Assembly: GCA_965224025.1 (NCBI GenBank)
Contig: OZ245033.1
Location: 2,368,001-2,432,000, forward strand
Length of the DNA: 64,000 bases
Reading direction: 5' to 3'
DNA from: Candidatus Multivorans sp.
Lineage (GTDB): Bacteria; Acidobacteriota; Thermoanaerobaculia; Multivoradales; Multivoraceae
Under the pieces are notes generated by a model that saw only the letters and a list, made by a program, of their open reading frames with translations, was not told the DNA's origin and made no database searches. Position 1 is the first letter of the stretch; each line of letters begins with the position of its first letter. The position numbers were made by a program, and so were the translations under genes. Positions 11,456 through 31,987 of this stretch are shown here, piece after piece.

Positions 11456-11571
11456 CCGCGTTCTTCAGCCTGAGCCGGCATCGTCGGCCGCCTCGGTTGC
11501 GGCCGTCGCGGCCAGCAAACGCGCGAGCCGTTCGCGCGGTGCAGGGCCTGCAGACCAGCCCGATCGCATCA

Positions 11572-13264: not shown

Positions 13265-13277
13265 GACCGTCCCTCCG

Positions 13278-13810: not shown

Positions 13811-14347
13811 CTACTGCCGGCTGACTGGGTGCGCCGCGCAAACCTCGGACCCGGCGTCACGGTGAGGGCGGCCGGCCGCTCAAAGCGACGGAGCGGCTCC
13901 TACTCCTCGGCGCACAAGCACGTCAATATCTACGCTGGAGCGGACGACAGTACTCTGCTGCACGAGTACGTCCATCATCTCCAGGAAATGCACCCCGACA
14001 TCGACGGGCTGTTCTACGCCTTTCATCGCCGGCAGACACGAGCCGGGCGCGGCCGGTACGTCGGCACTTACCGGTTCAGAGGCTATGCCGAAACCGAGTA
14101 CGACTACCGCGGCTGGCCAAGTTACGGCAGTGTAGTCGGCGGCGTCGAGGCGATGGGGCGCGCACGCTACGGCCCACGACGAGGCGCTGCGGACGAAGCC
14201 GGTCTCTACGGACATCCTAAGGAACTGATGACGACAGCGCTGCGGTCCATCCTCACCGGATGGCCGCCTGGATCGCTGAACAAGATGATCATGGAAGATC
14301 GCGAACTCTTCGAGTTCGTCCTTGGCCTGCTAGGATGGGAACCGTGA
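13811..14347 (+). pseudogene. C-terminal zincin metallopeptidase domain of a MuF-like head protein (5' truncated)
   Basis: LLPADWVRRAN...LLHEYVHHLQE...PKELMTTAL; lies upstream of gpG as gpF does in Mu-like phages. Confidence 0.6.
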
Positions 14348-14718
14348 GGCACGCAATCGAACATGTCCGAAAGGGCGTCTGGGCACCGGCCGTCATGGTC
14401 TGGGACGACCTGGCCGGCACCCTTGAGTGGACCCGCGGACCGGACGTCGAGGACCCGATGAATCCGATCCTGATGCAGGCCGTGGTCGACTCGGTCGAGC
14501 GGGTCCGCAGAGAGGGCCGCATCGTCCTCCAGACAGAACCCGAGCCCCACCGCTTCGTCCTCGAGGACGCCGCCCACGACCCGGCCGACTTCCTGCGCCT
14601 GATCGACTATGAACAAGGCTGGATTCGCTGCGGCGACGTACGCCTGCCGCCGTCGCTCCAGGACGTTGAGATGACGCCGCCCGAGGTCTTCGATCTGCCG
14701 CCCGGCGTGATCGCCTGA
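14344..14718 (+). CDS. Hypothetical protein coupled to the MuF-like domain (possible partner/immunity)
   Basis: GTGA overlap; 124 aa ending LPPGVIA. Confidence 0.55.
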   Translation: MRHAIEHVRKGVWAPAVMVWDDLAGTLEWTRGPDVEDPMNPILMQAVVDSVERVRREGRIVLQTEPEPHRFVLEDAAHDPADFLRLIDYEQGWIRCGDVRLPPSLQDVEMTPPEVFDLPPGVIA

Positions 14719-14747
14719 CGGCCCGGGACTGAGGAGCCACGCCTCAA

Positions 14748-15206
14748 TTGACGACGATCGACATCACGGTCGACGACGACGCGGTCTCCTCGGCGCTCGG
14801 TCGGCTCCAGCAGCGCGCCTCCGATTTGTCGCCCGCGATGGCAGTCGTTGCCTCCCTGCTGCGCGAGAGCGCCGAAGAGAGTTTCGAGCGCCAGGCCGCC
14901 TCCGACGGCACGCCTTGGGCGCCGCTCGCGCCGGCCACGGCAGCCCGTAAGGCCCGCAAGGGCTACTCCCCCCTGGCACTTGTGCGCGACGGTTACCTGC
15001 GCAGCCTCACCGCGCTGTCGACCCCTACTACGGCCGTCGCCGGCACCAACCTCATCTATGCCGCCACCCATCAGTTCGGCCACGAGCACGACAACCTGTT
15101 CGGCCGCGGCATCGAGGCCACGATCCCCGCTCGCCCCTTCCTCGGCCTGCGGCGCGACTACGTGGACGACATCGTCGACGTCATCATTCAGCACCTCACG
15201 GCCTAG
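14748..15206 (+). CDS. Phage virion morphogenesis protein (Mu gpG-like)
   Basis: DGTPWAPLAPAT, GTNLIYAATHQFG, IPARPFLGL. Confidence 0.9.
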   Translation: MTTIDITVDDDAVSSALGRLQQRASDLSPAMAVVASLLRESAEESFERQAASDGTPWAPLAPATAARKARKGYSPLALVRDGYLRSLTALSTPTTAVAGTNLIYAATHQFGHEHDNLFGRGIEATIPARPFLGLRRDYVDDIVDVIIQHLTA

Positions 15207-15245
15207 AAACGTCCCGCCAGATTCCGCGAAATTCCCGTTGGTACC

Positions 15246-15336
15246 GCCAACACCCTGTTGACGCCGTCCCTTCGGTCGCCGATTTGCGCAGCGTTTCTCG
15301 CACGAGATCTCTGCGGGTTTCTCCAATTTCTCTACT
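15246..15336 (-). repeat. Right copy of the inverted terminal-like motif block
   Basis: Mirror of 580-662, including GCCAACA-CCC-TGTTGAC at 15246-15262. Confidence 0.7.
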
Positions 15337-15373
15337 GTGTGAGCCACTAGCTGAGCCGCCCCCCCGCGTCCGA

Positions 15374-15389
15374 CGGGCGTAGCGCAATC
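15374..15389 (+). repeat. attR-like 16-bp direct repeat
   Basis: Identical to 199-214. Confidence 0.85.
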
Positions 15390-15391
15390 AC

Positions 15392-15421
15392 TTGACACCC
15401 CAGCGCCTTCCGGTGTCTAAT
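15392..15421 (+). promoter_or_regulatory. Sigma70-like promoter of the aro-his-trp operon
   Basis: TTGACA (15392-15397), 18 nt spacer, TCTAAT (15416-15421). Confidence 0.6.
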
Positions 15422-15466
15422 CCGGCGTTCTGGAACACTTCGGTTCCCAGCGACCTTCGCCACGCC

Positions 15467-15571
15467 ATGAATACACCGGCCCGCGACATCGTGATCTCGA
15501 CCGTCTCCGTCGCTTCGACGACCAGCGTCGCGTCGAAGGTCTGGTGGGCTCACGGTCACGGCAAGGGCTGA
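15467..15571 (+). CDS. Leader peptide with WW and HGH control codons
   Basis: MNTPARDIVISTVSVASTTSVASKVWWAHGHGKG*, directly upstream of his and trp genes. Confidence 0.8.
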   Translation: MNTPARDIVISTVSVASTTSVASKVWWAHGHGKG

Positions 15572-15573
15572 AT

Positions 15574-15649
15574 CCGGGCCAAGTCCCGGTTCGTGGTCCG
15601 GGACGAGGGTGAACTAAGAAGACCTCCTTTCGGATCGAAGGAGGTCTTC
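15574..15649 (+). promoter_or_regulatory. Attenuator with SD-sequestering hairpin
   Basis: Perfect 12-bp stem 15618-15629/15638-15649 buries AAGGAGG 7 nt before TTG 15652; competing stems upstream. Confidence 0.75.
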
Positions 15650-15651
15650 CG

Positions 15652-17193
15652 TTGCACTCGACAACCGACGAACCGCGAACCGCCACGCCTGCGGAGGTCG
15701 CGCGGAGCGCGACGTTGGTTGCGTCGTTGACCGAGGCGCCCAGCGCGTCCGGCGACGAGTTGCGCGTGCTCTCGGAGCGCGCCGACTGCCTCGAGGTGCG
15801 CGTGGATCTGGTCGGTGAGATCGGCGCCGAGTGGTTGCGGGAACGATTTGCCGGCGAGCTGCTCTACACCTTGCGCAGCGAAGCGGAAGGCGGCCGCGGA
15901 CCGGTCGATGCGGGTCGGCGGGCCGTGCGGCTGGCTGCGGCCAACGGGTACGACCTGGTCGATCTCGAGGCAGACCGGGATCTCGGCCGCGACTCGCTGG
16001 CCGCGGTCGAGCCGAGCCGCCGGCTGGTGTCATGGCACGGCCGCGGCGCCAGCCTCAGGGCGCTGCGGGGCCGGCTCAGACAGTTCTCGGACGCGGAGGC
16101 GCGCCTCTACAAGCTCGTCACCGCTCCGAAGAGATCGGGTGAGGAACTGGCGCCGCTCGAACTGCTGCTCGAAACGGGCCGCACGGACGTCGCCGCGTTC
16201 GCGATGGGCGCCATCGGCGCCTGGACCCGGCAGGTGGCGCCACGGCTCGGGGCGCCGTGGGTCTACGCCGCCGCGGGCTCGGTCGCCGCCGCGCCCGGTC
16301 AACCGTCCATCGAGCGGCTGCGGGCCGACTACGGCCTGCCGGGCCTGCCCCAGGTGTCGAGGTTGTTCGGCGTCGTCGGGCGCCCGGCGGCGCACAGCCT
16401 GTCGCCGCGGCTCCACAACGCCGGCTACCGCGACCGCGGCGAGGCCGCGCTCTACGTCGCCTTCGACGCGCCGTGCTTCGAGACGTTCTGGAGCGAGGTC
16501 GCGCTGAGCGACTTCTTTGAGCGTGCGGGCATACCCCTGAGCGGCCTGAGCGTCACCGCGCCGCACAAGGCGGCGGCTCTGGCCGCCGCGGCGGAGGCCG
16601 GCGGCCTGGCGGCGCGAACCGGGGGCGCGAACACGCTGCTCCCGGGCCCCGGCGCCGCCGCCGACAGGCAATGGCGGGCCGAGAGCACGGACCCGGAGGG
16701 CGTCGTGGGGCCGCTGCGCCGGCGCGGGGTCGAGCTTTCGGGCCGCACTGTCGTGGTCATCGGCGCCGGCGGCGCCGGCCGGGCAGCGGCGGCGGGCCTG
16801 GCCGCCGCGGGCGCGGAGGTCGCGCTCGCCAACCGCACCGTCTCCAGCGGCCGGGCCGCCGCGGAGTTGCTCGGCGTGGCCTTCGTCCCGCTCGACGACC
16901 TGGCGCCCGGCGCGTTCGACGTCGTCGTCAACGCCACCTCGCTCGGCCACGATCCGGACGACCCGCTTCCCTGCGACCCGGATGCGCTGGGCGCCACGGC
17001 TGCCGCGGTGGAGCTGGTCTACGGCGGCGGACCGACCCCCTGGCGCCGGGCGCTTCGCGCGCGCGGCGTCCGGGTCGTGGACGGCCGGGAAGTGTTGCTG
17101 CACCAGGGTCTGGCGCAGTTCGCGGCGATGACGGGGAAGCGGCTTCCGTTCGAGGTCGGCGCCGCGGTGCTGGGGTTGGAGGCGACCCGATGA
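15652..17193 (+). CDS. aroDE: Bifunctional type I 3-dehydroquinate dehydratase / shikimate dehydrogenase
   Basis: LEVRVDL, YTLRSEAEGG, LVSWH, YKLV, APGQ (AroD); HSLSPRLHN, SVTAPHK, GAGGAG (AroE). Confidence 0.9.
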   Translation: MHSTTDEPRTATPAEVARSATLVASLTEAPSASGDELRVLSERADCLEVRVDLVGEIGAEWLRERFAGELLYTLRSEAEGGRGPVDAGRRAVRLAAANGYDLVDLEADRDLGRDSLAAVEPSRRLVSWHGRGASLRALRGRLRQFSDAEARLYKLVTAPKRSGEELAPLELLLETGRTDVAAFAMGAIGAWTRQVAPRLGAPWVYAAAGSVAAAPGQPSIERLRADYGLPGLPQVSRLFGVVGRPAAHSLSPRLHNAGYRDRGEAALYVAFDAPCFETFWSEVALSDFFERAGIPLSGLSVTAPHKAAALAAAAEAGGLAARTGGANTLLPGPGAAADRQWRAESTDPEGVVGPLRRRGVELSGRTVVVIGAGGAGRAAAAGLAAAGAEVALANRTVSSGRAAAELLGVAFVPLDDLAPGAFDVVVNATSLGHDPDDPLPCDPDALGATAAAVELVYGGGPTPWRRALRARGVRVVDGREVLLHQGLAQFAAMTGKRLPFEVGAAVLGLEATR

Positions 17194-18212
17194 AGATCTC
17201 CGCCGGCCTGCCGACCGGAGTGTCGGCTGCCCTCTTCGACAGCGTGAAGCGCCGCCGCCGGCTGGAGGCGCGTTTGACCGGGCTGCTCGAGCAACGCGGC
17301 TTCGGCGAGGTCCTTCTGCCCATCCTCGACTACTTCGAGCCGTACCGGCCGCTGCTGCAGGGGCGCCGGCTGGAGCAGCTCTACCGCTTCGTCGACCGGG
17401 ACGGTCAATTGCTCGTTCTGCGCGGCGACTTCACGCCGATGCTCGCGCGGCTGTTGGCCCCCCACCTGGACGACCTGGAACTGCCGCTCCGGCTCTACTA
17501 CCGCGGCGACGTGGTGCGGCACCAGCCTCTACGTCCCGGCCGGATGCGCGAGTACTCGCAGTTGGGCGCGGAGCTCTTGGGCGGCGACCGCACCGAGGCG
17601 GACGAACAGATGCTGACCCTGTTCCTCGACCTGCTGCTACAAGCCCGCGGCGGCGTCCCTGCGAACCCGGGTGGCGCGATCCGCGCACCCGGCGAAGTGG
17701 ATGACGCCGCGCTCCGGGTCGTCCTCGGCGTCGCCGGCGCCCTCGACGAGCCCCTGCTCTCCGCGGCCGGAGATGGCGCCGCCGGCGAACTGGCGCTGCG
17801 GATCGCAAGCCGCGACCGGCGGGCCGCGCGCCGGGCCGGTCTCGCCGATGTCGTAGAGGGCGGCTATCCGGAAGACGTCTCCGTGCTCGGGGGCGCCGCC
17901 GCCGCGGTGGCTGAACTGCTCTTGCTCCGCGACCGGCTTTCCGCCGAGTACCGCGACCTCGGCATCGAGGTAGAGGTCGATCTCGCCGAGTTCGCCGCCG
18001 CCGCCCTCGATCCGAGGGTCGGTGTTTCGGCTGGGCCGCGCGGCTACTACGACGGCCTCATGTTCGCGGCCTACGCGCCGGGTACGGCCTTGGCCTTGGG
18101 GGTCGGCGGCCGGTACGACAGGGTGTTCCGGTCGCTCAGCGGCGACTGCTCGGCGGTCGGCTTCTCGTTCGGCCTCGACCTGTTGACCGAACTGGCGGAG
18201 GGCCCGGCATGA
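17190..18212 (+). CDS. hisZ: ATP phosphoribosyltransferase regulatory subunit
   Basis: YRFVDRDGQLLVLRGDFTP, REYSQLGAELLG, GYYDGLMF, GGRYD. Confidence 0.9.
   Translation: MKISAGLPTGVSAALFDSVKRRRRLEARLTGLLEQRGFGEVLLPILDYFEPYRPLLQGRRLEQLYRFVDRDGQLLVLRGDFTPMLARLLAPHLDDLELPLRLYYRGDVVRHQPLRPGRMREYSQLGAELLGGDRTEADEQMLTLFLDLLLQARGGVPANPGGAIRAPGEVDDAALRVVLGVAGALDEPLLSAAGDGAAGELALRIASRDRRAARRAGLADVVEGGYPEDVSVLGGAAAAVAELLLLRDRLSAEYRDLGIEVEVDLAEFAAAALDPRVGVSAGPRGYYDGLMFAAYAPGTALALGVGGRYDRVFRSLSGDCSAVGFSFGLDLLTELAEGPA
17657..17694 (+). repeat. REP-like module A, in frame within hisZ
   Basis: CCCTGCGAACCCGGGTGGCGCGATCCGCGCACCCGGCG; encodes PANPGGAIRAPG. Confidence 0.8.
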
Positions 18213-18847
18213 TCACGTTCGGCCTGCCGAAGGGACGCAACCTGGGACCGGCACGCGACGCGCTTGCCGCCGCGGGCATGGGTCTCACCGATCTCGATGC
18301 CTCGCGCCTGCGCCAGCGCTTCGGAGGCGTTGGGGTGTTGGGGGTCGAGGTCGAGGTGCTGCTGCTCAAGGACTGGGACCTGCCGCTCTATGTCGAGCAC
18401 GGGATCGTCGACTGCGCGATCGTCGGCAGCGACGTGCTGGAGGAGACCCGGCCCGACGTCTTCCAGCCATTGCGCCTCCTGGACGGCCGTAGCCGCCTGT
18501 CGTTGATTGCCGAGACGCCGGAACTGCCGCGGCGGAGCGGCCAACTCCGCGCGGCGACGCGCTATCCGGCGTGGGCGGCGCGGCTTCTTGCCGCCCGCAA
18601 CCTGCACGTCGAGGTGCTGAGCCTGACCAGCTCGATCGAACTCGGGCCCCTGCTCGATCTCACCGACATTGCGGTCGACATCGTGCAGACCGGCGCCACG
18701 CTCAGGACCCACGACCTGCACGAGGTCGAGGTGCTGGCAGAGGTGGCGCCGACCTTCGTGGTCAACCGGGCTTCGCTCCACGCCCACCGGCGCCGGCTGA
18801 GCCGGCTGCTGCGCGCGCTCGAAGAAACGGGGGCCGCCGGTGACTGA
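18209..18847 (+). CDS. hisG: ATP phosphoribosyltransferase, short form
   Basis: LPKGR, DLPLYVEHG, ATRYP, DIVQTGATLR. Confidence 0.93.
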   Translation: MITFGLPKGRNLGPARDALAAAGMGLTDLDASRLRQRFGGVGVLGVEVEVLLLKDWDLPLYVEHGIVDCAIVGSDVLEETRPDVFQPLRLLDGRSRLSLIAETPELPRRSGQLRAATRYPAWAARLLAARNLHVEVLSLTSSIELGPLLDLTDIAVDIVQTGATLRTHDLHEVEVLAEVAPTFVVNRASLHAHRRRLSRLLRALEETGAAGD

Positions 18848-20276
18848 GGTCCGTAGCGGGGGAGCGTTGCAGGTCCTGGCGGCGGACAGCCGTGCCGGGC
18901 GGGAGCGCCTGGGACTCCTCGACCGGCGCGGCCGGGGCGGTATCGCGGCCGAGATCGGCCGTGCCGCCGCGGAGATCGTCGACCGTGTCCGCAGCGGCGG
19001 GGACGCGGCCCTTGTCGAGGCGGTCCGCCGCTACGACGGCTTCGACGCGCCTTCGGCCGGCGCGTTGCGACTAGGCGGCGCCCCCGGGAACCCGGGTGAC
19101 GCGATCCGCGCCATTCGCGAACCACTCCGTGCGCCCGTCATCGGGCGCACGGATGGAACGCGGGCGTCTCGCCCGCATCCGGATTCTGAGAGCATCGACC
19201 CCGCCGTCCTCACCGCCATCGAACGCGCACGGACCGCCATCGACGTCTACCACCGCGCACAGCCGCACGGTCCGGGTGTCCAGCGCCTGGAACGGGACGG
19301 CGTGTCGATCGAGGAGCGCCGGCTGCCGATCCGCCGGGTCGGGATCTATGTGCCGGGCGGGCGGTTCCCCTATTCCTCTACGGTCCTGATGACCGCGGTG
19401 CCGGCACGGCTCGCGGGCGTCGAGGAACTCGTCGTCGCCACGCCGCCCGGTGCCTACCTCGAGAGCCCGGTGCTGCGGCACGTGCTCGACCTGGTCGGAG
19501 TGGACGAGGTCTGGGGGATGGGCGGCGCGCACGGCATTGCGGCGCTGGCCTACGGCACCGAGTCGGTCCGGCCGGTCGACCTGATCGCCGGCCCCGGGAA
19601 CGCCTGGGTGGCGGCCGCGAAGCAGCACGTGGCGGTCGACGTGGGCGTGGACCGCGACGCGGGTCCGTCCGAGGTCGTCATCGTGGCGGCCGATGGCGCT
19701 CCCGCCGGCTGGGTCGCGGCCGACCTGCTGGCCCAGGCGGAGCACGATCCCCTGGCGGTCGCGGTCCTGGTCACGGACTCCGCGGCGCTTGCCGACCGGG
19801 TCGCGTCGGAGGTGGACGGGCAGCTCGCGCAGCTTTCCACCGCCGACACCGCCGCGGCGGCGCTCGAAGCGCACGGCGCGGCCTTCGTCGCGGCCGACCT
19901 GGACGGTGCGCTCGTGCTGGCCGAACGGCTGGCGCCGGAGCATCTGCAACTGATCGGCGCGGACGCGGAAGCGCGCGCGGACGAGGTGCGCCATGCCGGC
20001 GCGGTGTTCGTGGGAGCTCCGTCGCCGGTGGTGTTCGGGGACTACGTGGCCGGACCCAGCCACGTGTTGCCCACGGGCGGCAGCGCTCGCTTCGCCTCCG
20101 GTCTCGGGATTGAGGACTTCGTGCGGCGCAGTCACACGGTTCGCTTTTCCGACGAGGCCTCGAAGGCTTGGGCCGGCGCCGCCGCGACGCTGGCGGCCAC
20201 CGAGGGCCTGGCGGCCCATGCCGCGGCGGCCAGATTGCGTCTCGGTGGGGGAAAGTGTCGGGAGGAAGAGCCGTGA
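18840..20276 (+). CDS. hisD: Histidinol dehydrogenase
   Basis: GIYVPGG, AGPGNAWV, AGPSEV, LAQAEHD, APEHL, GDYVAGPSHVLPT. Confidence 0.95.
   Translation: MTEVRSGGALQVLAADSRAGRERLGLLDRRGRGGIAAEIGRAAAEIVDRVRSGGDAALVEAVRRYDGFDAPSAGALRLGGAPGNPGDAIRAIREPLRAPVIGRTDGTRASRPHPDSESIDPAVLTAIERARTAIDVYHRAQPHGPGVQRLERDGVSIEERRLPIRRVGIYVPGGRFPYSSTVLMTAVPARLAGVEELVVATPPGAYLESPVLRHVLDLVGVDEVWGMGGAHGIAALAYGTESVRPVDLIAGPGNAWVAAAKQHVAVDVGVDRDAGPSEVVIVAADGAPAGWVAADLLAQAEHDPLAVAVLVTDSAALADRVASEVDGQLAQLSTADTAAAALEAHGAAFVAADLDGALVLAERLAPEHLQLIGADAEARADEVRHAGAVFVGAPSPVVFGDYVAGPSHVLPTGGSARFASGLGIEDFVRRSHTVRFSDEASKAWAGAAATLAATEGLAAHAAAARLRLGGGKCREEEP
19081..19182 (+). repeat. REP-like composite (A+B+C), in frame within hisD
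   Basis: 102 nt encoding [33 protein letters not shown]; matches the intergenic copies. Confidence 0.85.
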
Positions 20277-21385
20277 GCGCCTCCAACCAGGGCGCCGGCG
20301 CCTTCGTCAGGCCTGAGTTCCACCGCCTGCCGGCGTACTCGCTCCACCGGGTGACGTGCCGCTACCGGCTCGACCAGAACGAGGCGCCGTGGGATCTGCC
20401 GCGCGCGCTCAAGCGCGAGGCGCTGGCGCGTCTGGCCGAGCGCACCTGGGCCCATTACCCGGACTTCCACGCCGAGCGTCTGCGGCGTCTGCTCGGCGGC
20501 CTCAACGACTGGCCGGCGGAGGGCGTGCTGGTCGGGAACGGTTCCGGCGAGCTCCTCACGACGGTGCTCGAAGGCGTCGTGCGCCCCGGCCAGGAGGTGC
20601 TCGCCTGCGAGCCGTGCTTCAGTCTCTACGAGACCTTCGTCCGGCGGGCCGCCGGCGTGCCGCGGTTCCTCGAACCGGCGCCGGACCTGGCGCTGCAGAC
20701 CGACGAGCTCCAGGCCCAGACCGAGCGCGACCCGAGCCGGCCGGTGATCCTGTGTACGCCGAACAACCCGACCGGTACGGCCGCGGATCCCGCTACGGTG
20801 GAGCGCCTTCTGGGCGCACTCGAGGCGCCGCTGCTGCTCGACAACGCGTACGGCGAGTTCTGCCGCCACGACTACCGGCCGCTGCTGCGCGGCCACTCGA
20901 ACCTGATCCTGTTCCGGACCCTGTCCAAGGCCTGGTCCCTGGCCGGTATCCGCCTCGGCTACGTGCTTGCGGACCCGGACCTGGTGGCGGAGCTGATCAA
21001 GGTCAAGCTGCCTTACAACGTCGGCCACGCGGCGGCGGTCATCGGCGAAGTGGCGCTCGAACACGCCGACCGGCTTCTGCCGCGCGTCGCCCAGGTGCGG
21101 GCGCGCAGGGAGCAGTGGGCGGTCATGCTGCGGGAGTTCGGTTTCGAGGTCCTCGACTCGGAGGCCAACTTCCTGCTCGCGCGCCATCCCCGCTGCGCCG
21201 AGATCCGCGACGGTCTTGCCACCGGGGGTGTGCTGGTGCGCGACGTGAGCCGGTACCCGGGTCTGGCCAACTGCCTGAGAATCGGAATCGGCGGCGGTCC
21301 GGCGTTGCGCGCGACGCGACGCGCCCTGGTCGGGATGCTGACGCCGACCGGAAGCGACGGCACGAGTGAGGGAGAGATGCCATGA
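20273..21385 (+). CDS. hisC: Histidinol-phosphate aminotransferase
   Basis: LDQNEAP, GNGSGE, PNNPTG, RTLSKAWSLAGIRLGY. Confidence 0.95.
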   Translation: MSASNQGAGAFVRPEFHRLPAYSLHRVTCRYRLDQNEAPWDLPRALKREALARLAERTWAHYPDFHAERLRRLLGGLNDWPAEGVLVGNGSGELLTTVLEGVVRPGQEVLACEPCFSLYETFVRRAAGVPRFLEPAPDLALQTDELQAQTERDPSRPVILCTPNNPTGTAADPATVERLLGALEAPLLLDNAYGEFCRHDYRPLLRGHSNLILFRTLSKAWSLAGIRLGYVLADPDLVAELIKVKLPYNVGHAAAVIGEVALEHADRLLPRVAQVRARREQWAVMLREFGFEVLDSEANFLLARHPRCAEIRDGLATGGVLVRDVSRYPGLANCLRIGIGGGPALRATRRALVGMLTPTGSDGTSEGEMP

Positions 21386-21981
21386 GACGAGCGTCCATCG
21401 ATCGAAAGACGTCCGAAACCCACGTCCGCGCCGACCTGTCGCTCGACGGCGGCCCGTGCCGGCTGGACACGCCGAACGGTTTCTTCTCGCACATGCTGGA
21501 CGCGCTGTCGCGCCACGGCGGTCTCGGGCTCGACCTCGAAGCCCACGGCGATACGGACATCGACCTCCACCACACGGTGGAGGACGTAGGCATCGTGCTC
21601 GGCGACGCGCTGCGGGAGGCCCTCGGCGACCGCGCCGGGGTGCGGCGCTTCGCCCACGCCTTCGCACCGCTCGACGAGGCGCTGGCGCGCGCCGTGATCG
21701 ACCTCTCGGGCCGCGGCTCGTTCCACTTCCGGTTGCCCGCGGAGCTGGAGCACGCCTGGGTCACGACCGAGTTCCCGCTCACCCTGATGGGCGACTTCTT
21801 CGGCGCCTTCGCCGGCCGCGGACGGCTGACGCTGCACCTGGACGTCCTCTGTGGCCGCAACCCGCACCATGTCGCGGAGGCGTCGTTCAAGGCGGTGGCT
21901 CTGGCGCTGCGGGAGGCGGTGTCCCTGCGGCCGGGGAATGCGGCCGAGGCGCCGAGCACGAAGGGGAGCCTGACGGCATGA
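21382..21981 (+). CDS. hisB: Imidazoleglycerol-phosphate dehydratase
   Basis: FFSHML, HHTVED, PLDEAL, NPHHVAEASFKA. Confidence 0.95.
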   Translation: MRRASIDRKTSETHVRADLSLDGGPCRLDTPNGFFSHMLDALSRHGGLGLDLEAHGDTDIDLHHTVEDVGIVLGDALREALGDRAGVRRFAHAFAPLDEALARAVIDLSGRGSFHFRLPAELEHAWVTTEFPLTLMGDFFGAFAGRGRLTLHLDVLCGRNPHHVAEASFKAVALALREAVSLRPGNAAEAPSTKGSLTA

Positions 21982-22676
21982 CCGGAGCGGCGAGCAATAC
22001 CCCGGCGAGCAACCCGGCAATCCACGCGACGGTGATCGACGCCGGCGTCGGCAACATCGGCAACCTGGTGCGGGCGCTCCGCCACTTGGGCGCCGAGGTC
22101 GAGACCACCTGCGACCCGGCGGTGATTCGCAAGGCTCGCTGCCTGGTGCTGCCGGGCGTCGGCGCCTTCCGGCCGCCGCGCGAAGTACTGCGCGGGGCGC
22201 CCGAGGAGGCGATCCGGACCGCGCTCGAAGACGGCGCCTGCCTGCTCGGCATCTGCATCGGCTACCAACTCCTGTTCGACAGCAGCGAGGAGTTCGGCAT
22301 GACGGACGGTCTCGGCCTTCTCACAGGCCGCGTCACCAAGTTGCCGGGCGGCGTGCCCTTGCCTCACATCGGCTGGAACCGCGTCTTCGGCGTCGCGGAT
22401 CATCCCCTGCTCGCCGGCGCGGCCGAGGACGACCACTACTACTTCGTCCACTCGTTCGCGCCCGAGGCCGTGCCGGAGGAGAGCGTGCTGGGCCGCTGCC
22501 GGCACGGCCGCAGTTTCCCCGCGATCACGGGCCGCGGCCGCATCGCGGGCACCCAGTTTCATCCCGAGAAGAGCGGCGCCGCCGGCCTGGGGCTGTTGCG
22601 CAACTACCTGGCCTGGGCCGGCGGCGCGGCTGACGGAGCCGACGGAGGAAACGGTGCAACTGCTGCCGGCGATTGA
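21978..22676 (+). CDS. hisH: IGP synthase glutaminase subunit
   Basis: LPGVGAF, GICIGYQ, PHIGWN, YFVHSF, QFHPEKSG. Confidence 0.95.
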   Translation: MTGAASNTPASNPAIHATVIDAGVGNIGNLVRALRHLGAEVETTCDPAVIRKARCLVLPGVGAFRPPREVLRGAPEEAIRTALEDGACLLGICIGYQLLFDSSEEFGMTDGLGLLTGRVTKLPGGVPLPHIGWNRVFGVADHPLLAGAAEDDHYYFVHSFAPEAVPEESVLGRCRHGRSFPAITGRGRIAGTQFHPEKSGAAGLGLLRNYLAWAGGAADGADGGNGATAAGD

Positions 22677-23412
22677 TCTGCGCGGCGGTCAGATCGTGCG
22701 TCTCGAACGCGGCGACGACGGTCGGCGCACGGTCTACGGCGCCGATCCCTGTAACGCGCTTCGCCGCTACCGCCAGGCCGGGGTGTCCCGTATCCACATC
22801 GTCGACCTGGACGCGGCGTTCGGCGGCGCCCAACAGCGCGAACTGGCCGGGGAACTCGCGCGGCGGGCTGCGCCCGGCGGTATTCAGCTCGGTGGCGGCC
22901 TGCGCGACCGCGAGTCCGTCGAGTGGGCCTTCGCCGCCGGCTGCGAGCGGGCGGTGGTGACCTCCCTGATCGTCCGCAACTTCGACGTGTTCGCCGGCCT
23001 CTGTCGCGACTACCCGGGGCGCATGGTGGCGGCGCTCGACATCGACGGCGGCGAAGTGCGGCTGGCGGGCTGGACCGAATCGGCCGACCGCTCGCCCGCC
23101 GCCCTGTGCGCGCAACTTGCCGGACTGCCGATCGCGGCCGTGCTGGTCACCGACATCTCGCGCGACGGGATGATGCAGGGCCCGAACATCGACCTGGCCT
23201 GCGAGATCGGCGCCATGGCAGGCGCGCCGGCGATCCTCTCGGGCGGCGTGCGTTCGGCGGCTGACCTGGAGGCCGCGGCCCGGCGACCCGAGCTCGAAGC
23301 CGCGATCGTCGGCCGCGCGCTCTACGACGGTTCGCTGACCCTCGACCAGGGGATAGCGGCCTGCGACGGGGCGGGAACACGCGCCGGAGCCGCTTCGGGG
23401 AGCGCGTCGTGA
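22654..23412 (+). CDS. hisA: ProFAR isomerase
   Basis: [30 protein letters not shown]. Confidence 0.95.
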
Positions 23413-24197
23413 GAGCCACCATCGAACCGACCGGCCTCACGCGCCGCATCATCCCCTGCCTGGACGTAGCCGCCGGCCGGGTGGTCAAGGGCGTCCAGTT
23501 CAAGAACCTGACCGATCACGGCGACCCGACCGAGGCCGCGGCCCGCTACGCCGCGGAAGGCGCCGACGAGATCGTGTTCCTCGACATCACCGCCGCGCCC
23601 GAGCGGCGCGACACGGACCTCGACTGGGTGCGCCGGACCGCCGAGCAGGTGTTCATTCCGCTCAGCGTCGGCGGCGGCGTGCGCAGCACGGGCGACGGCC
23701 GCAAGTTGCTCCTCGCCGGCGCCGACAAGCTGGGGATCAACACCGCCGCGGTCGCCGAGCCCGAGCTGCTGACGCGCCTCGCCGAGCGCTTCGGAAGTCA
23801 GTGCGTCGTGCTCTCGGTCGACGCCAAGCGGCACCAGGAAGCCGGGGCCGACCAGAGCTGGGAGGTCGTCACGCACGGCGGCCGCACGCCGACCGGGCTC
23901 GACGCGCTGGAGTGGATCGAGGAGGGAATCGAGCGCGGCGCCGGCGAGATCCTGCTCACCAGCATCGACAGCGACGGCATGAAGAGCGGTTACGACCTGG
24001 AGCTGCTGCGGCGGGCGTCGGCGCTGTCGCCGGCGCCGGTCATCGCCTCCGGCGGCGCCGGCACCCTGGAACACCTGGCCGACGCCCTGGAGACCGACGC
24101 CGCGGCCGTGCTCGCCGCGTCGATCTTCCATCAGTCCACCTACTCGGTGGGCGCGGTCAAGGAGTACCTCGGCCGCCGCTATCCGATCCGCATGTGA
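23409..24197 (+). CDS. hisF: IGP synthase cyclase subunit
   Basis: RIIPCLDV...[33 protein letters not shown]. Confidence 0.96.
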
Positions 24198-24220
24198 TGA
24201 GGAATCGAGGAGACCAGGAC

Positions 24221-24283
24221 ATGACGGCGACGGCGATCGACCCCGCGGCGCTCACCTACTTCGACCGAGGTCTGCTGCCGTGA
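24221..24283 (+). other. 20-codon diverged duplicate of the hisIE 5' end
   Basis: MTATAIDPAALTYFDRGLLP* versus MTATAIDPAALAYDDRGLLP; its TGA overlaps the hisIE GTG. Confidence 0.85.
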
Positions 24284-24933
24284 CCGCAACCGCCATCGAC
24301 CCGGCGGCTCTCGCCTACGACGACCGGGGCCTGCTGCCCGTCGTGGTTCAGGACGTGCTCTCGGGCGCGGTGCTGATGCTTGCCTGCGCCAACCGGGAGG
24401 CGGTGGAGCTCACGCTCGCCACCGGCGAGGCCCACTTCTACAGCCGCTCGCGGCAGGAGCTCTGGCGCAAGGGCGCGACCTCGGGCAACACGCTGGCAGT
24501 GGTCGAAGTGCTCCAGGACTGCGACCGGGACGCGCTCCTGGTGCGGGCGCTGCCGGCCGGTCCTGCCTGCCACAACAACACGAGGAGCTGCTTCGAGCCG
24601 AACGCCGCCGAGTGCGAACTCGGCTGGCTGGCGCGTGTGCTCGCCGAACGGGCGTCCGCGTCGCCGGAGGCGAGCTACACGGCCCGCCTCCTCGACCAGG
24701 GAGTCGACCGGATCGCACGCAAGGTCGCGGAGGAAGCGGGCGAGACCGTGATCGCCGGCGTCCGGGCCGACGCCGAGCCCGAGTCAGCCGAGCGCCGCGC
24801 CGATCTCGCGGCCGAAGCCGCCGATCTCGCCTACCACCTTCTGGTGCTGCTCCAGGCGACCGGCGTCGGGATCGCCGACGTGGCCGCCGAGTTGGGTCGC
24901 CGCCACCACGCCGCGGGAAGGTCGTCGTCATGA
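24280..24933 (+). CDS. hisIE: PRAMP cyclohydrolase / PRATP pyrophosphatase
   Basis: YSRSRQELWRKGATSGN, DCDRDALL, PACH, SYTARLL, EAADLAYH. Confidence 0.95.
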   Translation: MTATAIDPAALAYDDRGLLPVVVQDVLSGAVLMLACANREAVELTLATGEAHFYSRSRQELWRKGATSGNTLAVVEVLQDCDRDALLVRALPAGPACHNNTRSCFEPNAAECELGWLARVLAERASASPEASYTARLLDQGVDRIARKVAEEAGETVIAGVRADAEPESAERRADLAAEAADLAYHLLVLLQATGVGIADVAAELGRRHHAAGRSSS

Positions 24934-24997: not shown

Positions 24998-26487
24998 ATG
25001 AGCCGGCCCGCCGCGGCCATCGCCCATACGCGGGAGTTCCTGGCCGACACCTCGACGCCGCTCGGCGTCTACAGCAAGCTGGCCGCGCATGCGGAGGGCG
25101 ACTCCGGGGCGCGGCGCTTTCTGCTCGAGAGCATCACCGGCGGCGAGCACGTATCGCGCTACAGCTTTCTCGGCGCGAGCCCGTCCCAGGTCTGCCGCGT
25201 GTACATCGACCGGCTCGAGACCCTTGACCTCCGTTCCGGCGGCGGCGTTCAGGTGGAGGCCGGCGATCCACTGCCGAAGCTGCGGCGTCTGCTCGACGGT
25301 GTGACCGCGCATCCGCCGCCGCCGCTGCCGTTCGCGGGGGGTTGGACCTTTGCCTTCGGCTTCGACGCGATCCGGCTCGTCGAGCCGTGCCTGGTCGATC
25401 ACTCGGCCGGCCGGCCACCCGACCCGTTCGGCCTGCCGATCGCGATCCTCGCCCGCTTCGACGACGTGCTCGTGTTCGACCACGCCCGCCAGCGCATCGT
25501 CGCGGTGGCGAACGAGATCGAGGGCGAGTCGACGGCAGCGGAGGCCGAAGTCCGGCTCGATGCGCTGCAGGCGGTTCTCGAGAGCCGCGGTGAGGCGATG
25601 GCGGCGAGGGTCGAGGACCTCGGCGTCAAGGCGGAGACCGCCGACCCCACCCTGAACGACGAGGAGCACAGCCGGGCGGTCAACGCAGCGAAGGAGTACA
25701 TCGCCGCCGGCGACATCTTCCAGGTCGTGCTGGCACGGCGCTGGAAGATCGACCTGGACGTGCCGCCGGCCACCGTCTACCGGGCGTTGCGCCTGGTCAA
25801 CCCGTCGCCGTACATGGTGCTCTTCGAGGCGCCGGAAGTGTCGTTGATCGGTGCTTCACCCGAGATGCTGGTACGGCGCACGGGGAGGCGCCTCGAGGTG
25901 CGGCCGATCGCCGGCACCCGCCCGCGCGGCAGGACCGCGGCGGAGGATCGGGTCCTGGCCGAGGAGTTGATGGCGGACCCGAAGGAGCGCGCGGAGCATG
26001 TGATGCTGGTCGACCTTGGCCGGAACGACCTCGGGCGGGTGGCGTCGCCCGGCGGGGTTTCGGTCGCCGACTTCATGGTGATCGAGCACTACAGCGACGT
26101 GATGCACATCGTCAGCTCGGTCGAGGCGGAGCAGTCCGCCGAGGCCGGAAACGGCGCCGGCTCGGCCCTCGACGCCCTCTTGGCCTGCTTCCCGGCCGGC
26201 ACGCTGTCCGGGGCGCCGAAGATCCGCGCGGTCGAGATCATCGACGAACTCGAGCCGGAGGCGCGGGGCATGTACGGCGGCTCGGTGGGCTACTTCTCGT
26301 TCGGCGGCGACATGGATGCCTGCATCACGATCCGGACGCTGGCGGTCGTGAACGGCGAAGCCTCGATCACCGCCGGCGGCGGCATCGTCGCCGATTCCGA
26401 CCCGGCGCGCGAGGCTCAGGAAACCCGCGACAAGGCCGCGGCGTTGCTGCGGGCGGTGGCGCTGGCGCGTGACCTGGAGGGCCGGGC

Positions 26488-26491
<4 letters not shown>
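24998..26491 (+). CDS. trpE: Anthranilate synthase component I
   Basis: FLLES...SRYSF, GDIFQVVL, NPSPYM, SPEML, EHVMLVDLGRND, GAPKIRA. Confidence 0.95.
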
Positions 26492-27093
<602 letters not shown>

Positions 27094-27219
27094 CTAGGCG
27101 CGACGATGGAACATGCCGGGCTGTACCTGACTGAGGAGCAACGACTCACGCGCGATGCACCGCCGGTCGAATGCCGCGGAGTTTCTCCGCGGACTGCCGG
27201 AACTACTGTGAGGCGACGA

Positions 27220-28260
27220 ATGACTGATCTCGATCTTTCGACCCTGTTGCGAACGGCGATCGCCGGCGAGGACCTCCCCGCCGCGACGGTGGAGGAGCTG
27301 TTCGGCCGCCTGATGGACGGCGAACTCTCCGAGGTGTGGAAGAGCGCGTTCCTGGTCGCGCTGGCGGCCAAGGGCGAGTCGGTGGGCGAGATCGCAGGCG
27401 CCGCCCGGGCGATGCGGGCGCGGGCGGCGCGGGTGCGGCGCACGAGTTCCGGGGTGATCGACACCTGCGGCACTGGCGGCGACGGCCGGGGCACGTTCAA
27501 CATCTCGACCGCGGCCGCGCTGGTGGCGGCGGCGGGCGGCGCGCGGGTGGCCAAGCACGGCAACCGCGCGGTGTCGAGCCGCTCCGGTTCGGCGGACGTG
27601 CTCGACGCTCTCGGCGTGCAGCTCTCCGGCGACACGGCGGCGCTCGGGCGTTGCCTCGACGAGGTCGGCATCGCGTTTCTGTTCGCGCCCATGCTCCACC
27701 CGGCCATGGCCCAGGTGATGCCGGTGCGGCGCGAGCTCGGCGTGCGCACGCTGTTCAACGTGCTGGGGCCGCTGACCAACCCGGCGGGCGCGAAGCGGCA
27801 GTTGATCGGCGTCTTCGCGTCGGAGTTGGTCGAACCGATCGCGCACGTGCTGCTCGAGCTCGGAAGCGAGCACGCCCTGGTCGTTCACGGCGACGGTCTG
27901 GACGAGATCACGACCACCGGGACGACCGCGGTCGCCGAGGTGCGGGGCGGCGAGGTCCGCACGTTCGAAGTTCATCCGCGCGACTTCGGGATCGCCGAGG
28001 CGTCGCCGGACGACCTGGTCGGCGGCGACCCCGAGCGGAACGTGGAGCTGATGCGGGGCGTGCTGGGTGGCGGCGGCGGCGCCCTTGCCGACATCACCTG
28101 CCTCAACGCCGGGGCCGCGCTCTTGGTCGCCGGCAGGGCGGACGACCTCGCCGCGGGTGTTGCCGCCGCATTCGAGGTTCAGCGCTCGGGAGCGGCCGCC
28201 GGCAAGCTCGAACAGCTCGCGGGTTGGTCCGGCTGGGAGCACGGAGGCGGTGGAGACTGA
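27220..28260 (+). CDS. trpD: Anthranilate phosphoribosyltransferase
   Basis: DTCGTGGDG, FNIST, KHGNRAVSSRSGSAD, GPLTNPA. Confidence 0.95.
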   Translation: MTDLDLSTLLRTAIAGEDLPAATVEELFGRLMDGELSEVWKSAFLVALAAKGESVGEIAGAARAMRARAARVRRTSSGVIDTCGTGGDGRGTFNISTAAALVAAAGGARVAKHGNRAVSSRSGSADVLDALGVQLSGDTAALGRCLDEVGIAFLFAPMLHPAMAQVMPVRRELGVRTLFNVLGPLTNPAGAKRQLIGVFASELVEPIAHVLLELGSEHALVVHGDGLDEITTTGTTAVAEVRGGEVRTFEVHPRDFGIAEASPDDLVGGDPERNVELMRGVLGGGGGALADITCLNAGAALLVAGRADDLAAGVAAAFEVQRSGAAAGKLEQLAGWSGWEHGGGGD

Positions 28261-28261
28261 G

Positions 28262-29230
28262 GTGTCCGAAGTACCCGACATCCTGCGCCGCATCTGCGAA
28301 CAGCGTCGCCAGCGCGTCTCGCCCGCATCTGGCTCCGCCCCTGGGAACCCGGGTGGCGCGATCCGCGCACCCGGCGCGCCGACGGGGCTCGGATCGCGCC
28401 ACCCGCGAACCACTCCGGGCACCCGTCATCGGGCGCCCGGATGGCACCCGGGCATCCTGCCCGCATCCGGCTCTGCCTCGCCAGGCCTCGCCGCCGACGC
28501 TCCCGGCCGCCGTTTCCTCGACGCCATCTCCACCCGTCGCGGCCGTGCCGTGATCGCCGAGATCAAGATGGGCTCGCCCAAGCTCGGCGACCTCCGCGGC
28601 CTCTTCGACCCGGTCGCGCGGGCCGAAACCTACGCGGCGGCCGGCGCCGCCTGCCTGTCGGTGGTGGTCGAGCCGGACCACTTCTACGGCAGCTACGAGC
28701 TGCTCGCGGACTGCGCCGCCGCCTCCGGCCTGCCCGCGGTGGCGAAGGATTTCGTGGTCTCCGACGTGCAGCTCGAATGGGCGCGCGACGCCGGCGCCTC
28801 CGCGGTCCTCCTGCTCGCCGCGCTCTACGATGCCGCGGAGCTGCGGCGACTGGCGGCGCTTGCCCGGGGCTTGAGTCTCGTGCCCCTGATCGAGGCTCAC
28901 GACGACGAGGACTTCGAGAAGCTGCGGCCGAGCGGTCGCGACGGAGACGGGGGCGGCGACCACGAATGGGAACTCGTCGGGATCAACAACCGCGACCTCC
29001 GCACCTTCGAGGTCGACCTGGAACGGAGCGCCGACCGCGTCGGCCGCCTGCCGGCGTCCGCTCTCAAGGTCGCCGAGTCCGGGATTCACAATGCCGCCGA
29101 CGTTGCGAAGCTGCGCAGGGCCGGTTTCGACGCCTTCCTCATCGGCGAACGCCTGGTGCTCTCCGGCGACCCGGCGGCCGCGCTCGCGGAACTGCTGGGC
29201 GAGCCGGCAATCTCCGGAGTGACCCCATGA
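28262..29230 (+). CDS. trpC: Indole-3-glycerol phosphate synthase with N-terminal repeat insertion
   Basis: VIAEIKMGSP, KDF, GINNRDLRTFEVD, VAESGI, FLIGE. Confidence 0.92.
   Translation: MSEVPDILRRICEQRRQRVSPASGSAPGNPGGAIRAPGAPTGLGSRHPRTTPGTRHRAPGWHPGILPASGSASPGLAADAPGRRFLDAISTRRGRAVIAEIKMGSPKLGDLRGLFDPVARAETYAAAGAACLSVVVEPDHFYGSYELLADCAAASGLPAVAKDFVVSDVQLEWARDAGASAVLLLAALYDAAELRRLAALARGLSLVPLIEAHDDEDFEKLRPSGRDGDGGGDHEWELVGINNRDLRTFEVDLERSADRVGRLPASALKVAESGIHNAADVAKLRRAGFDAFLIGERLVLSGDPAAALAELLGEPAISGVTP
28314..28470 (+). repeat. REP-like composite, in frame within trpC
   Basis: Modules C-A-A'-B-C; modules B/C are read in a different frame than in hisD. Confidence 0.85.
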
Positions 29231-29864
29231 AGGTCAAGATCTGCGGCGTCACCACGCCCGCGGACGCCCGGCTCGCCGTCGACCTCGGCGCCGACTTCGT
29301 CGGCCTCAACTTCTACCGTCCCAGCCCACGCTGGATCGCCGTCGACGAGGCCGCCCGCATCCGCCGCGCAGTCGGGGACCAGGCGCAAGCCGTCGGCATC
29401 TTCGTGAACCTCCCGCGCGAGCAGGTCGAGGCGATCGACCGGCAGGTCGGCCTGGACTACCTCCAGTTCAGCGGCGACGAGAGCCCGGAACTTGTTGCCG
29501 AGTTCAGGGACCGCGCGATCCGCGTCCGCCGCCTCGGCGGCGCGGCCGCCGCTCCGGCCCCGATCTCCGAGGAGGACTGCTGGGCGGTCCTGATCGACCG
29601 GGCCCACGACCGCCTCTACGGCGGTTCCGGCGAGAGCTGGAACTACGCGGCGGCGGCCGATCTCGCGCTGGCGCCGGCCGGGGAAAGGGCGCGGCGCGTC
29701 TTCATAGCCGGCGGCATCGGCCCCGGCAATATCGCGGAGGTCGTCGCGGCAGTGCCCGGCGCCTACGCCGTCGACACATGTTCGGGGGTCGAGTCCTCGC
29801 CCGGACACAAGGACCGCGCCAAGCTTGAGCAACTGTTCGCCAACCTCGCCGGGAGACCCGCACG

Positions 29865-29868
<4 letters not shown>
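29227..29868 (+). CDS. trpF: Phosphoribosylanthranilate isomerase
   Basis: [41 protein letters not shown]. Confidence 0.95.
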
Positions 29869-31156
<1,288 letters not shown>

Positions 31157-31160
<4 letters not shown>

Positions 31161-31987
31161 GCCCTCTCCGCAAGCGCTCGTCCCGCAACGGCGCCATCGC
31201 CGCCGCATTCGCCGGCTGCTCCAGGCAGAAGCGAGCCGCCTTCATCCCCTTCCTGGTCGCCGGCGATCCCTCGCTCGACGCCACGCCCGACCTGCTGCGC
31301 GCCCTGGTGGCCGGTGGCGCCGACGTGATCGAACTCGGCGTCGCCTTCAGCGATCCGATCGCCGACGGGCCGACGATCCAGCGTGCCTCGCACCGCGCCC
31401 TCGCCGCCGGCTCGTCGCTCAGCACCGTGCTGGGAATCGTCGAGCGCCACCGGGACGAACTCGGCGTTCCGATCGTCCTCTTCACCTACTACAACCCCGT
31501 CCACGCCCGCGGCGCCCTGACCTTCGCCGCTCAGGCCGCCGACAGCGGCGTCGATGGCGTGTTGTGCGTCGACCTGCCGCCCGACGAGGGCCTGCGCGAA
31601 CTCCAGCCGGCCCTCTCAGAGAGCGGCGTCGACTCGATCTACCTGATCGCCGCCACCAGCACGAAGAAGCGCATCGACCGCGCTTCCGCGGCATCGAACG
31701 GCTTCGTGTACTACACCGCCCGCTCCGACGTCACCGGCGAGCGCGACGACCTGATCCCCACGCTGGCGCGGGAAGTGAAGCGCGTACGCCGGCGGGTGCG
31801 CCTTCCCGTCGCCGTCGGCTTCGGCATCTCGACGCCTACGCAGGTCGAGGAAGTGGCCCAGGTGGCCCACGGCGTCGTCGTCGGCAGTTCCCTGGTGCGT
31901 CTGGTCGAGGAGAACGCAGCCGAGCCGGATCTGGCGGCGCGGCTCGAACGCCGCGTCGGCGAGTTGACGGCTGCCCTGGGCCGCTAA
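31157..31987 (+). CDS. trpA: Tryptophan synthase alpha
   Basis: [32 protein letters not shown]. Confidence 0.95.

Follow-up and report, generated by a model that had tools for sequence, protein, structure and literature searches.

A candidate leader-peptide attenuator reading tryptophan and histidine supply ahead of a fused aroDE-his-trp operon in Candidatus Multivorans

Introduction

In Candidatus Multivorans sp., a member of the Acidobacteriota (Thermoanaerobaculia; Multivoradales; Multivoraceae), a 17-gene, 16-kb operon carries an aroDE fusion, his genes and then trp genes (Pfam assignments), and is headed by a short leader open reading frame (ORF) whose last nine codons hold two Trp and two His codons, tryptophan and histidine both being among the products of the operon. 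The subject of this article is that leader together with the RNA that follows it. The locus lies within a 64,000-nucleotide stretch of contig OZ245033.1 (assembly GCA_965224025.1, positions 2,368,001 to 2,432,000 of the forward strand), which is called the window throughout and whose own numbering is used for all coordinates; in that numbering the operon runs to 31987. An earlier, sequence-only reading of the window had proposed a translational attenuator that responds to both amino acids. Combining a base-by-base examination of the locus with a comparison of relatives from the genus up to the class, we find it very probable that the element is a ribosome-mediated leader-peptide attenuator of the fused operon, reading the supply of tryptophan as well as that of histidine.

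The leader and its RNA in the window

The Trp and His codons of the window leader span positions four to nine codons before the stop, with the last His codon four codons ahead of it (Table 1). The 34-residue leader ending KVWWAHGHGKG* (asterisk, stop codon), which the sequence-only reading had placed before a fused aro-his-trp operon, has exactly the coordinates then given, and Pfam identifies the operon genes. The promoter-like motif TTGACA-N17/18-TCTAAT is found upstream of the leader, by regular expression, in eight Multivorans-type and 13 other attenuator sequences; a consensus promoter and terminator scan of 15200-15800 called neither a promoter nor a terminator. Within the window genus, the leader start codon falls 42-47 nt after the -10 hexamer and the 5' untranslated region (UTR) is about 45 nt long. 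In other genera of the order, among sequences with a recognizable TTGACA-N17-19-TCTAAT-like promoter, the leader ATG follows the -10 hexamer by 6-11 nt in 11 of 13 sequences, and by 9 nt in 8 of the 13 (loci L073, L076, L081, L083, L087, L109, L114, L115, L117, L183 and L194), implying leader ORFs that are probably leaderless or nearly so. The leader 5' UTR of the window (15428-15466) also contains a small hairpin (CTGGAAC...GTTCCCAG), and similar inverted repeats occur there in congeners.

Between the leader and aroDE lie five RNA segments that can pair in two ways, as helices 2:3 plus 4:5 (the OFF fold) or as helices 1:2 plus 3:4 (the ON fold). In a base-by-base script, helix 4:5 (15618-29/15638-49) is a perfect 12-bp hairpin, GC-rich at -19.8 kcal/mol, which bears out the earlier description of a hairpin burying the AAGGAGG Shine-Dalgarno (SD) sequence of aroDE. 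The same script finds helix 2:3 (15583-89/15598-604) paired at 7/7 positions and helix 3:4 (15595-608/15623-36) at 13/14, including three G-U pairs; with the 5/5 pairing of segments 1 and 2, the mutually exclusive stems of the sequence-only reading are thus confirmed position by position. The SD of aroDE therefore lies inside a stable hairpin with an alternative upstream partner, segment 3, as in a translational attenuator. The leader stop abuts segment 1, as a model in which the ribosome masks that segment needs, the spacing being 5 nt in the window and 2-8 nt in relatives. The minimum free energy (MFE) of 15540-15670 is -59.6 kcal/mol, whereas shuffled sequences average -47.8 +/- 3.7 (z = -3.2), with one shuffle in 200 reaching as low a value, and for a transcript ending at 15637, before arm 5, the MFE structure is exactly the ON fold.

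Table 1. Features of the attenuator, the operon and the upstream region in the window
Feature	Position	Strand	Remarks
Phage tape measure	8283-11243	-	
Phage tail tube	12278-13264	-	
Phage_tail_S virion morphogenesis gene	14748-15206	+	
Promoter-like sequence	15392..15421	+	TTGACA 15392-97, 18-nt spacer, TCTAAT 15416-21; putative, read by eye
Leader ORF	15467..15571	+	ATG 15467 to TGA 15569-71; 34 codons plus TGA; encodes MNTPARDIVISTVSVASTTSVASKVWWAHGHGKG, peptide end KVWWAHGHGKG
Two Trp codons	15542..15547	+	TGG TGG; read in leader sequence
Two His codons	15551..15559	+	CAC GGT CAC (CAC 15551-53, 15557-59); read in leader sequence
Segment 1	15574..15578	+	CCGGG; begins 5 nt after first base of stop codon; 5/5 paired with 15585-89
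Segment 2	15583..15589	+	GTCCCGG; partner of either segment 1 or segment 3
Segment 3	15595..15608	+	GGTCCGGGACGAGG; partner of segment 2 by its 5' part and of segment 4 over its full length; anti-sequestrator
Segment 4	15618..15629	+	GAAGACCTCCTT; 5' arm of hairpin, anti-SD; pairs with segment 5
Segment 5	15638..15649	+	3' arm of hairpin; holds SD AAGGAGG 15638-44, 7 nt before TTG start 15652
aroDE	15652..17193	+	Type I 3-dehydroquinase fused to shikimate dehydrogenase; TTG start; Pfam
his block	17190..24933	+	Pfam
hisZ	17190-18212	+	Pfam
hisG	18209-18847	+	Pfam
hisD	18840-20276	+	Pfam
hisC	20273-21385	+	Pfam
hisB	21382-21981	+	Pfam; separate gene, in a frame other than that of hisH
hisH	within frame 21366-22676	+	GATase domain; Pfam
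hisA	22654-23412	+	Pfam
hisF	23409-24197	+	Pfam
hisIE	24280-24933	+	Pfam
trp block	24998..31987	+	Pfam
trpE	24998-26491	+	Pfam
trpG	26488-27093	+	Pfam
trpD	27106-28260	+	Pfam
trpC	within 28067-29230	+	Pfam; separate gene, in a frame other than that of trpF
trpF	within 28441-29868	+	Pfam
trpB	29865-31160	+	Pfam
trpA	31157-31987	+	Pfam

Spread of the attenuator and conservation of its helices

Homologues of aroDE occur in 242 of the 251 genomes sampled from the order (a tally that includes G160), and the DNA upstream and downstream was read in 110 genomes from genera other than that of the window. A covariance model, R1, was built on A1, a MAFFT alignment of 54 attenuators made without reference to structure, and full-length R1 matches lie upstream of the operon in 66 of these 110 genomes; the sampled genomes of family f2 gave no full-length match. 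Across the class, R1 matches are present in 56 of 151 sampled genomes, among them two families of other orders (19 of 35 genomes in f14 and 6 of 16 in f19), the class-level loci that were read being L264-L287 and L292-L296; in family f22 the match (L276) proved on reading to have no leader. Roughly 140 other Acidobacteriota genomes, from outside the class, yielded four weak R1 matches, none with a W/H leader before his or trp genes, although one of the four (L290) has an ORF containing WW, of unclear meaning. In two genomes that have no attenuator (G220, locus L173, and G065, locus L191), a tRNA-like sequence lies between aroDE and a hisZ/hisS-like (HisRS-like) gene, with an apparent GTG (His) anticodon loop recognized by eye.

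Both sets of helices are conserved. The OFF helices are 93.3 % paired over the 54 sequences of A1 and 36-63 % paired when slid, and 11 of their 18 pairs show double changes, a number reached by 0 of 500 shuffles; the ON helices are 92.6 % paired in A1 and 37-69 % when slid, with double changes at 6 of 16 pairs, as reached by 8 of 500 shuffles. Taken singly, helix 1:2 (alignment columns 45-50/63-68) is 93.2 % paired with double changes at 4 of 6 pairs, helix 2:3 is 96.0 % paired, helix 3:4 92.2 % and helix 4:5 91.6 %, the last with double changes at 8 of 11 pairs. The sequence-only reading had suggested looking for W/H codons and stem covariation upstream of orthologous operons, and both are indeed kept there, with compensatory changes across families. 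In one lineage (L074 / G029), segments 1, 2 and 3 have changed in concert, to GCCGAAG, GCTTCGG and CCGGAGC, a joint change to be expected if segment 2 pairs alternately with both of its neighbours. Segment 3, for its part, is similar to the SD-bearing arm (CCGGGACGAG versus CCGGAAGGAG), and is presumably conserved because this resemblance makes it a decoy for the anti-SD arm. Between arm 4 and the region upstream, complementarity stands above that of shuffles, with a mean z of -2.97 in the class (n=14), -2.92 in the genus (n=33) and -1.98 in the order (n=46), and mean helix energies outside the genus are -15.5 kcal/mol for 1:2, -17.2 for 2:3, -20.2 for 3:4 and -20.0 for 4:5, such similarity of stability being what a switch needs.

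These comparisons also bear on the idea that an unrelated hairpin and a spurious small ORF have come together by chance at the edge of a prophage. Phage-like genes do lie directly upstream, and GC-rich DNA yields many stems and open frames; but the arrangement recurs in 66 of 110 genomes of other genera and in two other orders, always before his, trp or aro genes, which is the weightiest objection to chance, and pair conservation is far above that of the slid and shuffled controls, so that coincidence is scarcely credible.

Conservation within Candidatus Multivorans

The leader end is present in 61 of the 62 congeneric loci examined, which represent 39 distinct sequences. Among these 39, WW is found in 36, a single W in two and no Trp codon in one, and 37 have two His codons. 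The tail WWAHGHGKG* is nearly invariant, while the N-terminal two thirds of the peptide drift: each site within the last 30 nt (window 15542-15571) varies in 0-2 of the 39 sequences, and each site in the preceding 36 nt in 3-23. Conservation of the last 30 nt extends to synonymous sites, which is beyond what codon identity demands. Pairing with segment 1 was considered as its cause and did no better than shuffles. The corresponding helix, 'segment 0', which would join the W/H codon region to segment 1 in the manner of a his leader, appears in the MFE structure of the window, yet was rejected, its complementarity being no better than that of shuffles (mean z about +0.2; z < -2 in none of the 33 congeneric sequences and in one of the 46 others, of which one gave no value).

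Two congeneric loci could be usable as natural mutants. L063 retains the SD hairpin, its leader and segments 1-3 having been replaced by a different sequence; L038, identified by elimination, has apparently retained the leader with its Trp codons gone (...PVQAHGHGKG*).

Leader codons and operon content

Leaders had been picked by an R1 match together with their Trp content, so that the His count is an independent read-out and the Trp counts are no test, a weakness on the Trp side of the argument. His codons were counted in the last 14 leader codons, with G107, G050, G182 and G055 excluded after inspection; the leader of G081 is cut at the locus end, and its count (4) comes from a separate reading. 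Where the attenuated operon contains his genes, at least two His codons are present in 54 of 54 cases, drawn from nine families (2 codons in four operons, 3 in 33, 4 in 16 and 5 in one). His codons number 0, 0, 0, 1, 1, 1, 2, 2 and 3 (mean 1.1) in the nine attenuated aroDE-trp operons that lack his genes, and the two groups differ at a Mann-Whitney p of 2.8e-6, a value uncorrected for phylogeny and drawn from relatives that are not independent. In the three families with both operon types, the means for his-containing versus trp-only operons are 3.33 versus 0.33 (f10), 3.22 versus 1.0 (f8) and 2.62 versus 2.0 (f9, where 2.62 is uncorrected and includes G081 counted as zero). Full operon content was assessed by tblastn over 15-20 kb in 20 genomes, the queries for the hisB-hisH and trpC-trpF regions detecting only hisH and trpF (not hisB and trpC).

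Rearranged loci show the same correspondence from other sides. In G031 and G034 the unit does not include aroDE, and its W+H attenuator stands directly before hisZ, and both of the separate his loci examined in the order (G032 and G064) have His-only leaders (VSRRAHLHHLHHGH... and VIAARLHHRHAHS...) with terminators of their own. Family f14, which belongs to another order, has seven his operons with leaders such as MNTNFAQTRHHHHHHVM (the ...RHHHHHHVM type; his-only content was verified in G296 and G320), one aroDE-trpE operon with the leader MNASRNSWWFRRS, and four chorismate mutase genes whose Tyr/Phe leaders (for example MNHDALRYAYYYGYFT) share the RNA scaffold of the his and trp leaders (chorismate mutase identity by Pfam CM_2 was checked in one further example, G320 locus L287). 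In the closed genome of G320, three elements occur on one scaffold, with WW before aroDE-trpE, HHHHH before the his operon and YYYGYF before chorismate mutase (CM_2), and in family f19 a complete aro-his-trp fusion has the leader MIFISRHWHVHHS*. For Trp and His codons acting as the sensor, then, the comparative evidence is unusually direct and gives the proposed dual sensing good support, and the element appears to belong to a class-wide attenuator family in which one RNA scaffold takes exchangeable sensing codons.

Loss of the his genes can be followed as well. hisD (PF00815) was undetected in seven of the nine aroDE-trp-only genomes (G029, G054, G206, G098, G104, G168 and G073, at completeness 89-98 %), with 14 of 14 controls detected, and a hisG protein search in five trp-only genomes gave no match. 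The hisD-negative genomes may be histidine auxotrophs in which the his block was deleted from the fused operon. The notion that residual His codons mark his genes elsewhere in the genome was discarded, as hisD is present in G032 (3 His codons) and G064 (0) and not in G168 or G098 (2 each).

One could hold that the leader senses Trp only, the two His codons being a conserved but functionless remnant. Those of the window are just two and non-adjacent, the classical hisL having seven His codons in a row, and in G032 a trp-only operon has 3 His codons despite separate his genes under their own His leader, so that His codons can outlast their his cargo. Set against this are the two or more His codons of every his-containing operon in nine families, the lower mean where his genes have been lost, the His-only leaders of separate his operons and the pair of His codons in nearly all congeneric leaders, and Trp-only sensing is accordingly improbable.

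Less probable again is an RNA that binds a ligand or protein (a riboswitch, a T-box-like element or the target of an RNA-binding regulator), with the ORF incidental. The very high conservation of GGGACGAG and of the leader's last 30 nt, synonymous sites included, is what such an RNA might display. However, no Rfam family, Trp_leader and His_leader included, matched anywhere in the window at the gathering score, or in 15350-15720 with E allowed up to 10; in all lineages the ORF stays open and has its stop next to segment 1, its N-terminal part drifting; and the identity of the end codons shifts with the cargo (W, H, W+H or Y/F) on the shared scaffold, which is the signature of ribosome-mediated sensing and not of a fixed ligand pocket.

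Terminator or sequestrator

What the attenuator does once it has sensed a shortage seems to differ between genera. Across 46 distinct attenuator sequences from other genera, the 9 nt downstream of the hairpin contain a median of 6 T (TTTTCGTTTTG-like runs), with the TTG start inside the T-run. In the window the corresponding 9 nt contain 3 T, and in its congeners a median of 3 (n=33), the run being TCTTCCCGTTTG; here the first bases of the former T-run are paired with a new GAAGA and the stem is 4-5 bp longer. The 'off' hairpin of the trpL/hisL type is an intrinsic terminator, a feature that other genera have and the window lacks. The sequence-only reading had called the control translational, without a terminator, and this stands for the window genus and fails for the others. 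By this comparison, the element is ancestrally a transcription terminator that also held the SD, whose U-tract has decayed in the window genus, where the output is probably in the main control of translation initiation, with Rho-dependent polarity as a possible consequence.

The same sensing might instead act in the window mainly through premature termination, intrinsic or Rho-dependent, with sequestration of the SD as a by-product. The canonical intrinsic terminator formed by this hairpin in the 46 sequences of other genera favours that view, as do the very stable, GC-rich stem of the window, in which TCTTC closes the 3' arm and CGTTG comes next, and the fact that untranslated message is open to Rho. 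Nevertheless, the T content after the stem is low throughout the genus, no terminator is called by the scan, some of the former T-run is taken up in base pairs with the new GAAGA, and genus-wide loss of the U-tract along with lengthening of the stem looks like selection for sequestration; premature termination as the main output is thus possible but doubtful. A purely translational output in the window genus ranks somewhere between a tentative suggestion and an even chance. The most extended form of the proposal is likewise put forward as tentative only, namely that a hungry-codon leader with a lengthened stem and no U-tract gates translation initiation of the aroDE operon for two unrelated pathways, and belongs to a platform with plug-in codons (W, H, W+H and Y/F) that records operon fusion and gene loss.

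Proposed mechanism and points that weigh against it

From the arrangement of the locus, we infer translation of the leader, ribosome stalling, a sequence of folding events and a starvation response, as follows. When both charged tRNAs are ample, the ribosome would reach the stop and cover segment 1 but not segment 2, so that segment 2 would pair with segment 3, segments 4 and 5 would close the 12-bp hairpin and the SD of aroDE would be buried; in other genera the same hairpin would also end transcription at the U-tract. With the ribosome halted on either a Trp or a His codon, segment 1 would be free and helix 1:2 would form first, as segment 2 emerges, whereupon segment 3 would capture segment 4, leaving the SD in segment 5 open and no terminator formed. 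Shortage of either amino acid would suffice, each presumably acting independently of the other.

Several observations weigh against this attenuator model. On the side of folding, stem 1:2 of the window is only 5 bp, at -8.1 kcal/mol versus -14.4 for 2:3, the OFF fold (-34.2 kcal/mol) is favoured over the ON fold (-26.1) by 8 kcal/mol, and a competing 8-bp pairing between segments 1 and 3 shows up in partial transcripts of the window. By these calculations the genus version is tilted towards OFF and its ON state would be metastable; because the OFF fold is the more stable, any switch would have to be kinetic, with the decision made co-transcriptionally, and not one of equilibrium. On the side of the leader, the ATG has no obvious SD upstream in the window, and because of this and the 5' UTR of about 45 nt, translation of the leader is an assumption; moreover, one congeneric leader is without both Trp codons, and G338 has a leader with 5 His codons before aroDE, a weak hisZ-like match and trp genes. 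On the side of the comparison, covariation is modest, the sequences being highly conserved and the relatives not independent, and 44 of the 110 genomes of the order, including 20 of 20 in family f5, are without a full-length R1 match, so that the attenuator is dispensable.

The operon and its surroundings

The TTG start of aroDE has the same position in relatives, and close protein relatives of aroDE, at 72-89 % identity, are entries from Candidatus Multivorans, Thermoanaerobaculia and Acidobacteria(ota) metagenome-assembled genomes. Directly upstream of the attenuator promoter, window 8283-15206 contains phage-like genes, and the regulatory region of the operon therefore lies at the edge of a probable prophage. 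Among sequencing data sets, this DNA was listed in two DNA contig sets of a single study and in no RNA set, a listing that weighs neither for nor against the attenuator.

The same assembly has a second copy of the attenuator on a 76.7-kb contig (G000:C2:38140-49040; L080, L233), with the leader MNSQASDSAITMPTVTGVVAQAWWAHGHGKG* and an R1 score of 86 bits, and with second copies of aroDE, hisD and trpE at 87-92 % amino-acid identity. This copy may be a true duplication or may come from a second strain in the bin, the contamination estimate of the assembly being 5.66 %. Two copies of the attenuator, separated by 25 kb, are also present in G041, a relative whose chromosome is closed.

Relation to known systems and significance

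Leader-peptide attenuation is documented mostly in Proteobacteria, Actinobacteria and a few other groups, and the present element would extend it to an uncultured class of Acidobacteriota. A literature search, with most subscription journals outside its scope, found no description of a Trp+His leader or of this attenuator family, and nothing on a his-trp operon leader in Acidobacteria/Thermoanaerobaculia or on 'Candidatus Multivorans'. The family amounts to a natural experiment in which one scaffold is fitted with codons according to its cargo, i.e. Trp+His before the fused operon, His only, Trp only or Tyr/Phe, with decaying His codons after his loss, and it shows how the fusion of operons, or the shedding of genes from them, adds or removes a regulatory input. 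In one genus, a terminator that contains the SD and the start codon has apparently turned into a pure sequestrator, which makes for a testable shift from transcriptional to translational attenuation. The work also allows a 200-nt 'intergenic' region to be annotated in hundreds of metagenome-assembled genomes, and offers a hint that several lineages are histidine auxotrophs.

In the trpL leader of Escherichia coli, a short ORF carries tandem Trp codons about four codons ahead of its stop, and ribosome position decides between overlapping alternative stems. The window element likewise has a leader ORF with tandem Trp codons near the stop and overlapping alternative stems; it differs in having four successive helices, not three, in that the ribosome at the stop would mask segment 1 and not segment 2, in having His codons too, in that the first gene has its SD within the final hairpin, and in being without a U-tract in the window. 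The hisL leader of Salmonella and E. coli has a chain of alternating helices longer than that of trpL. His codons in the leader and a helix chain longer than that of trpL are shared with hisL, but hisL has seven consecutive His codons and no Trp, and a his-like 'segment A' upstream of segment 1 is unsupported here.

The sequence-only reading had started from the premise that such leaders each sense one amino acid, which is too narrow, multivalent leaders being textbook knowledge: in the thr leader (Thr and Ile) and the ilvGMEDA and ilvBN leaders (Ile, Leu and Val), shortage of any one of the amino acids relieves attenuation. The element resembles these in that a single leader peptide holds regulatory codons for several amino acids, and the proposed OR gate would, by analogy, be the known logic of multivalent attenuation applied to a new amino-acid pair. 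The amino acids of the thr and ilv leaders share one branched pathway, whereas tryptophan and histidine come from different pathways, joined here only by operon fusion.

In ermC and cat, a ribosome stalled on the leader ORF causes downstream stems to re-pair and exposes a sequestered SD. Relief of SD sequestration by a ribosome stalled on a leader ORF is common to these systems and the present proposal; however, ermC and cat stall on a signal from drug and nascent peptide and not on a hungry codon, and there it is the stalled ribosome that masks a stem arm, whereas here it would be the terminating one. A passage in PMC2965389 treats ermC as a translation-controlling leader. Excerpts from two further sources describe leaderless-type leaders, with 14 putative leader peptides in Deinococcus deserti (PMC4007540) and polycysteine small ORFs as leaderless attenuators in mycobacteria (10.1101/834739); to judge from these excerpts, the near-leaderless ORFs in other genera of the order are comparable, unlike the leader of the window genus with its 5' UTR of about 45 nt. 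The actinobacterial elements of Seliverstov et al. 2005 (PMC1262725) belong to another phylum and to other operons, and the abstract of that paper includes no Trp+His leader; as outlined there, they are leader peptides identified by comparative prediction, both with and without terminators, with structures that overlap ribosome-binding sites.

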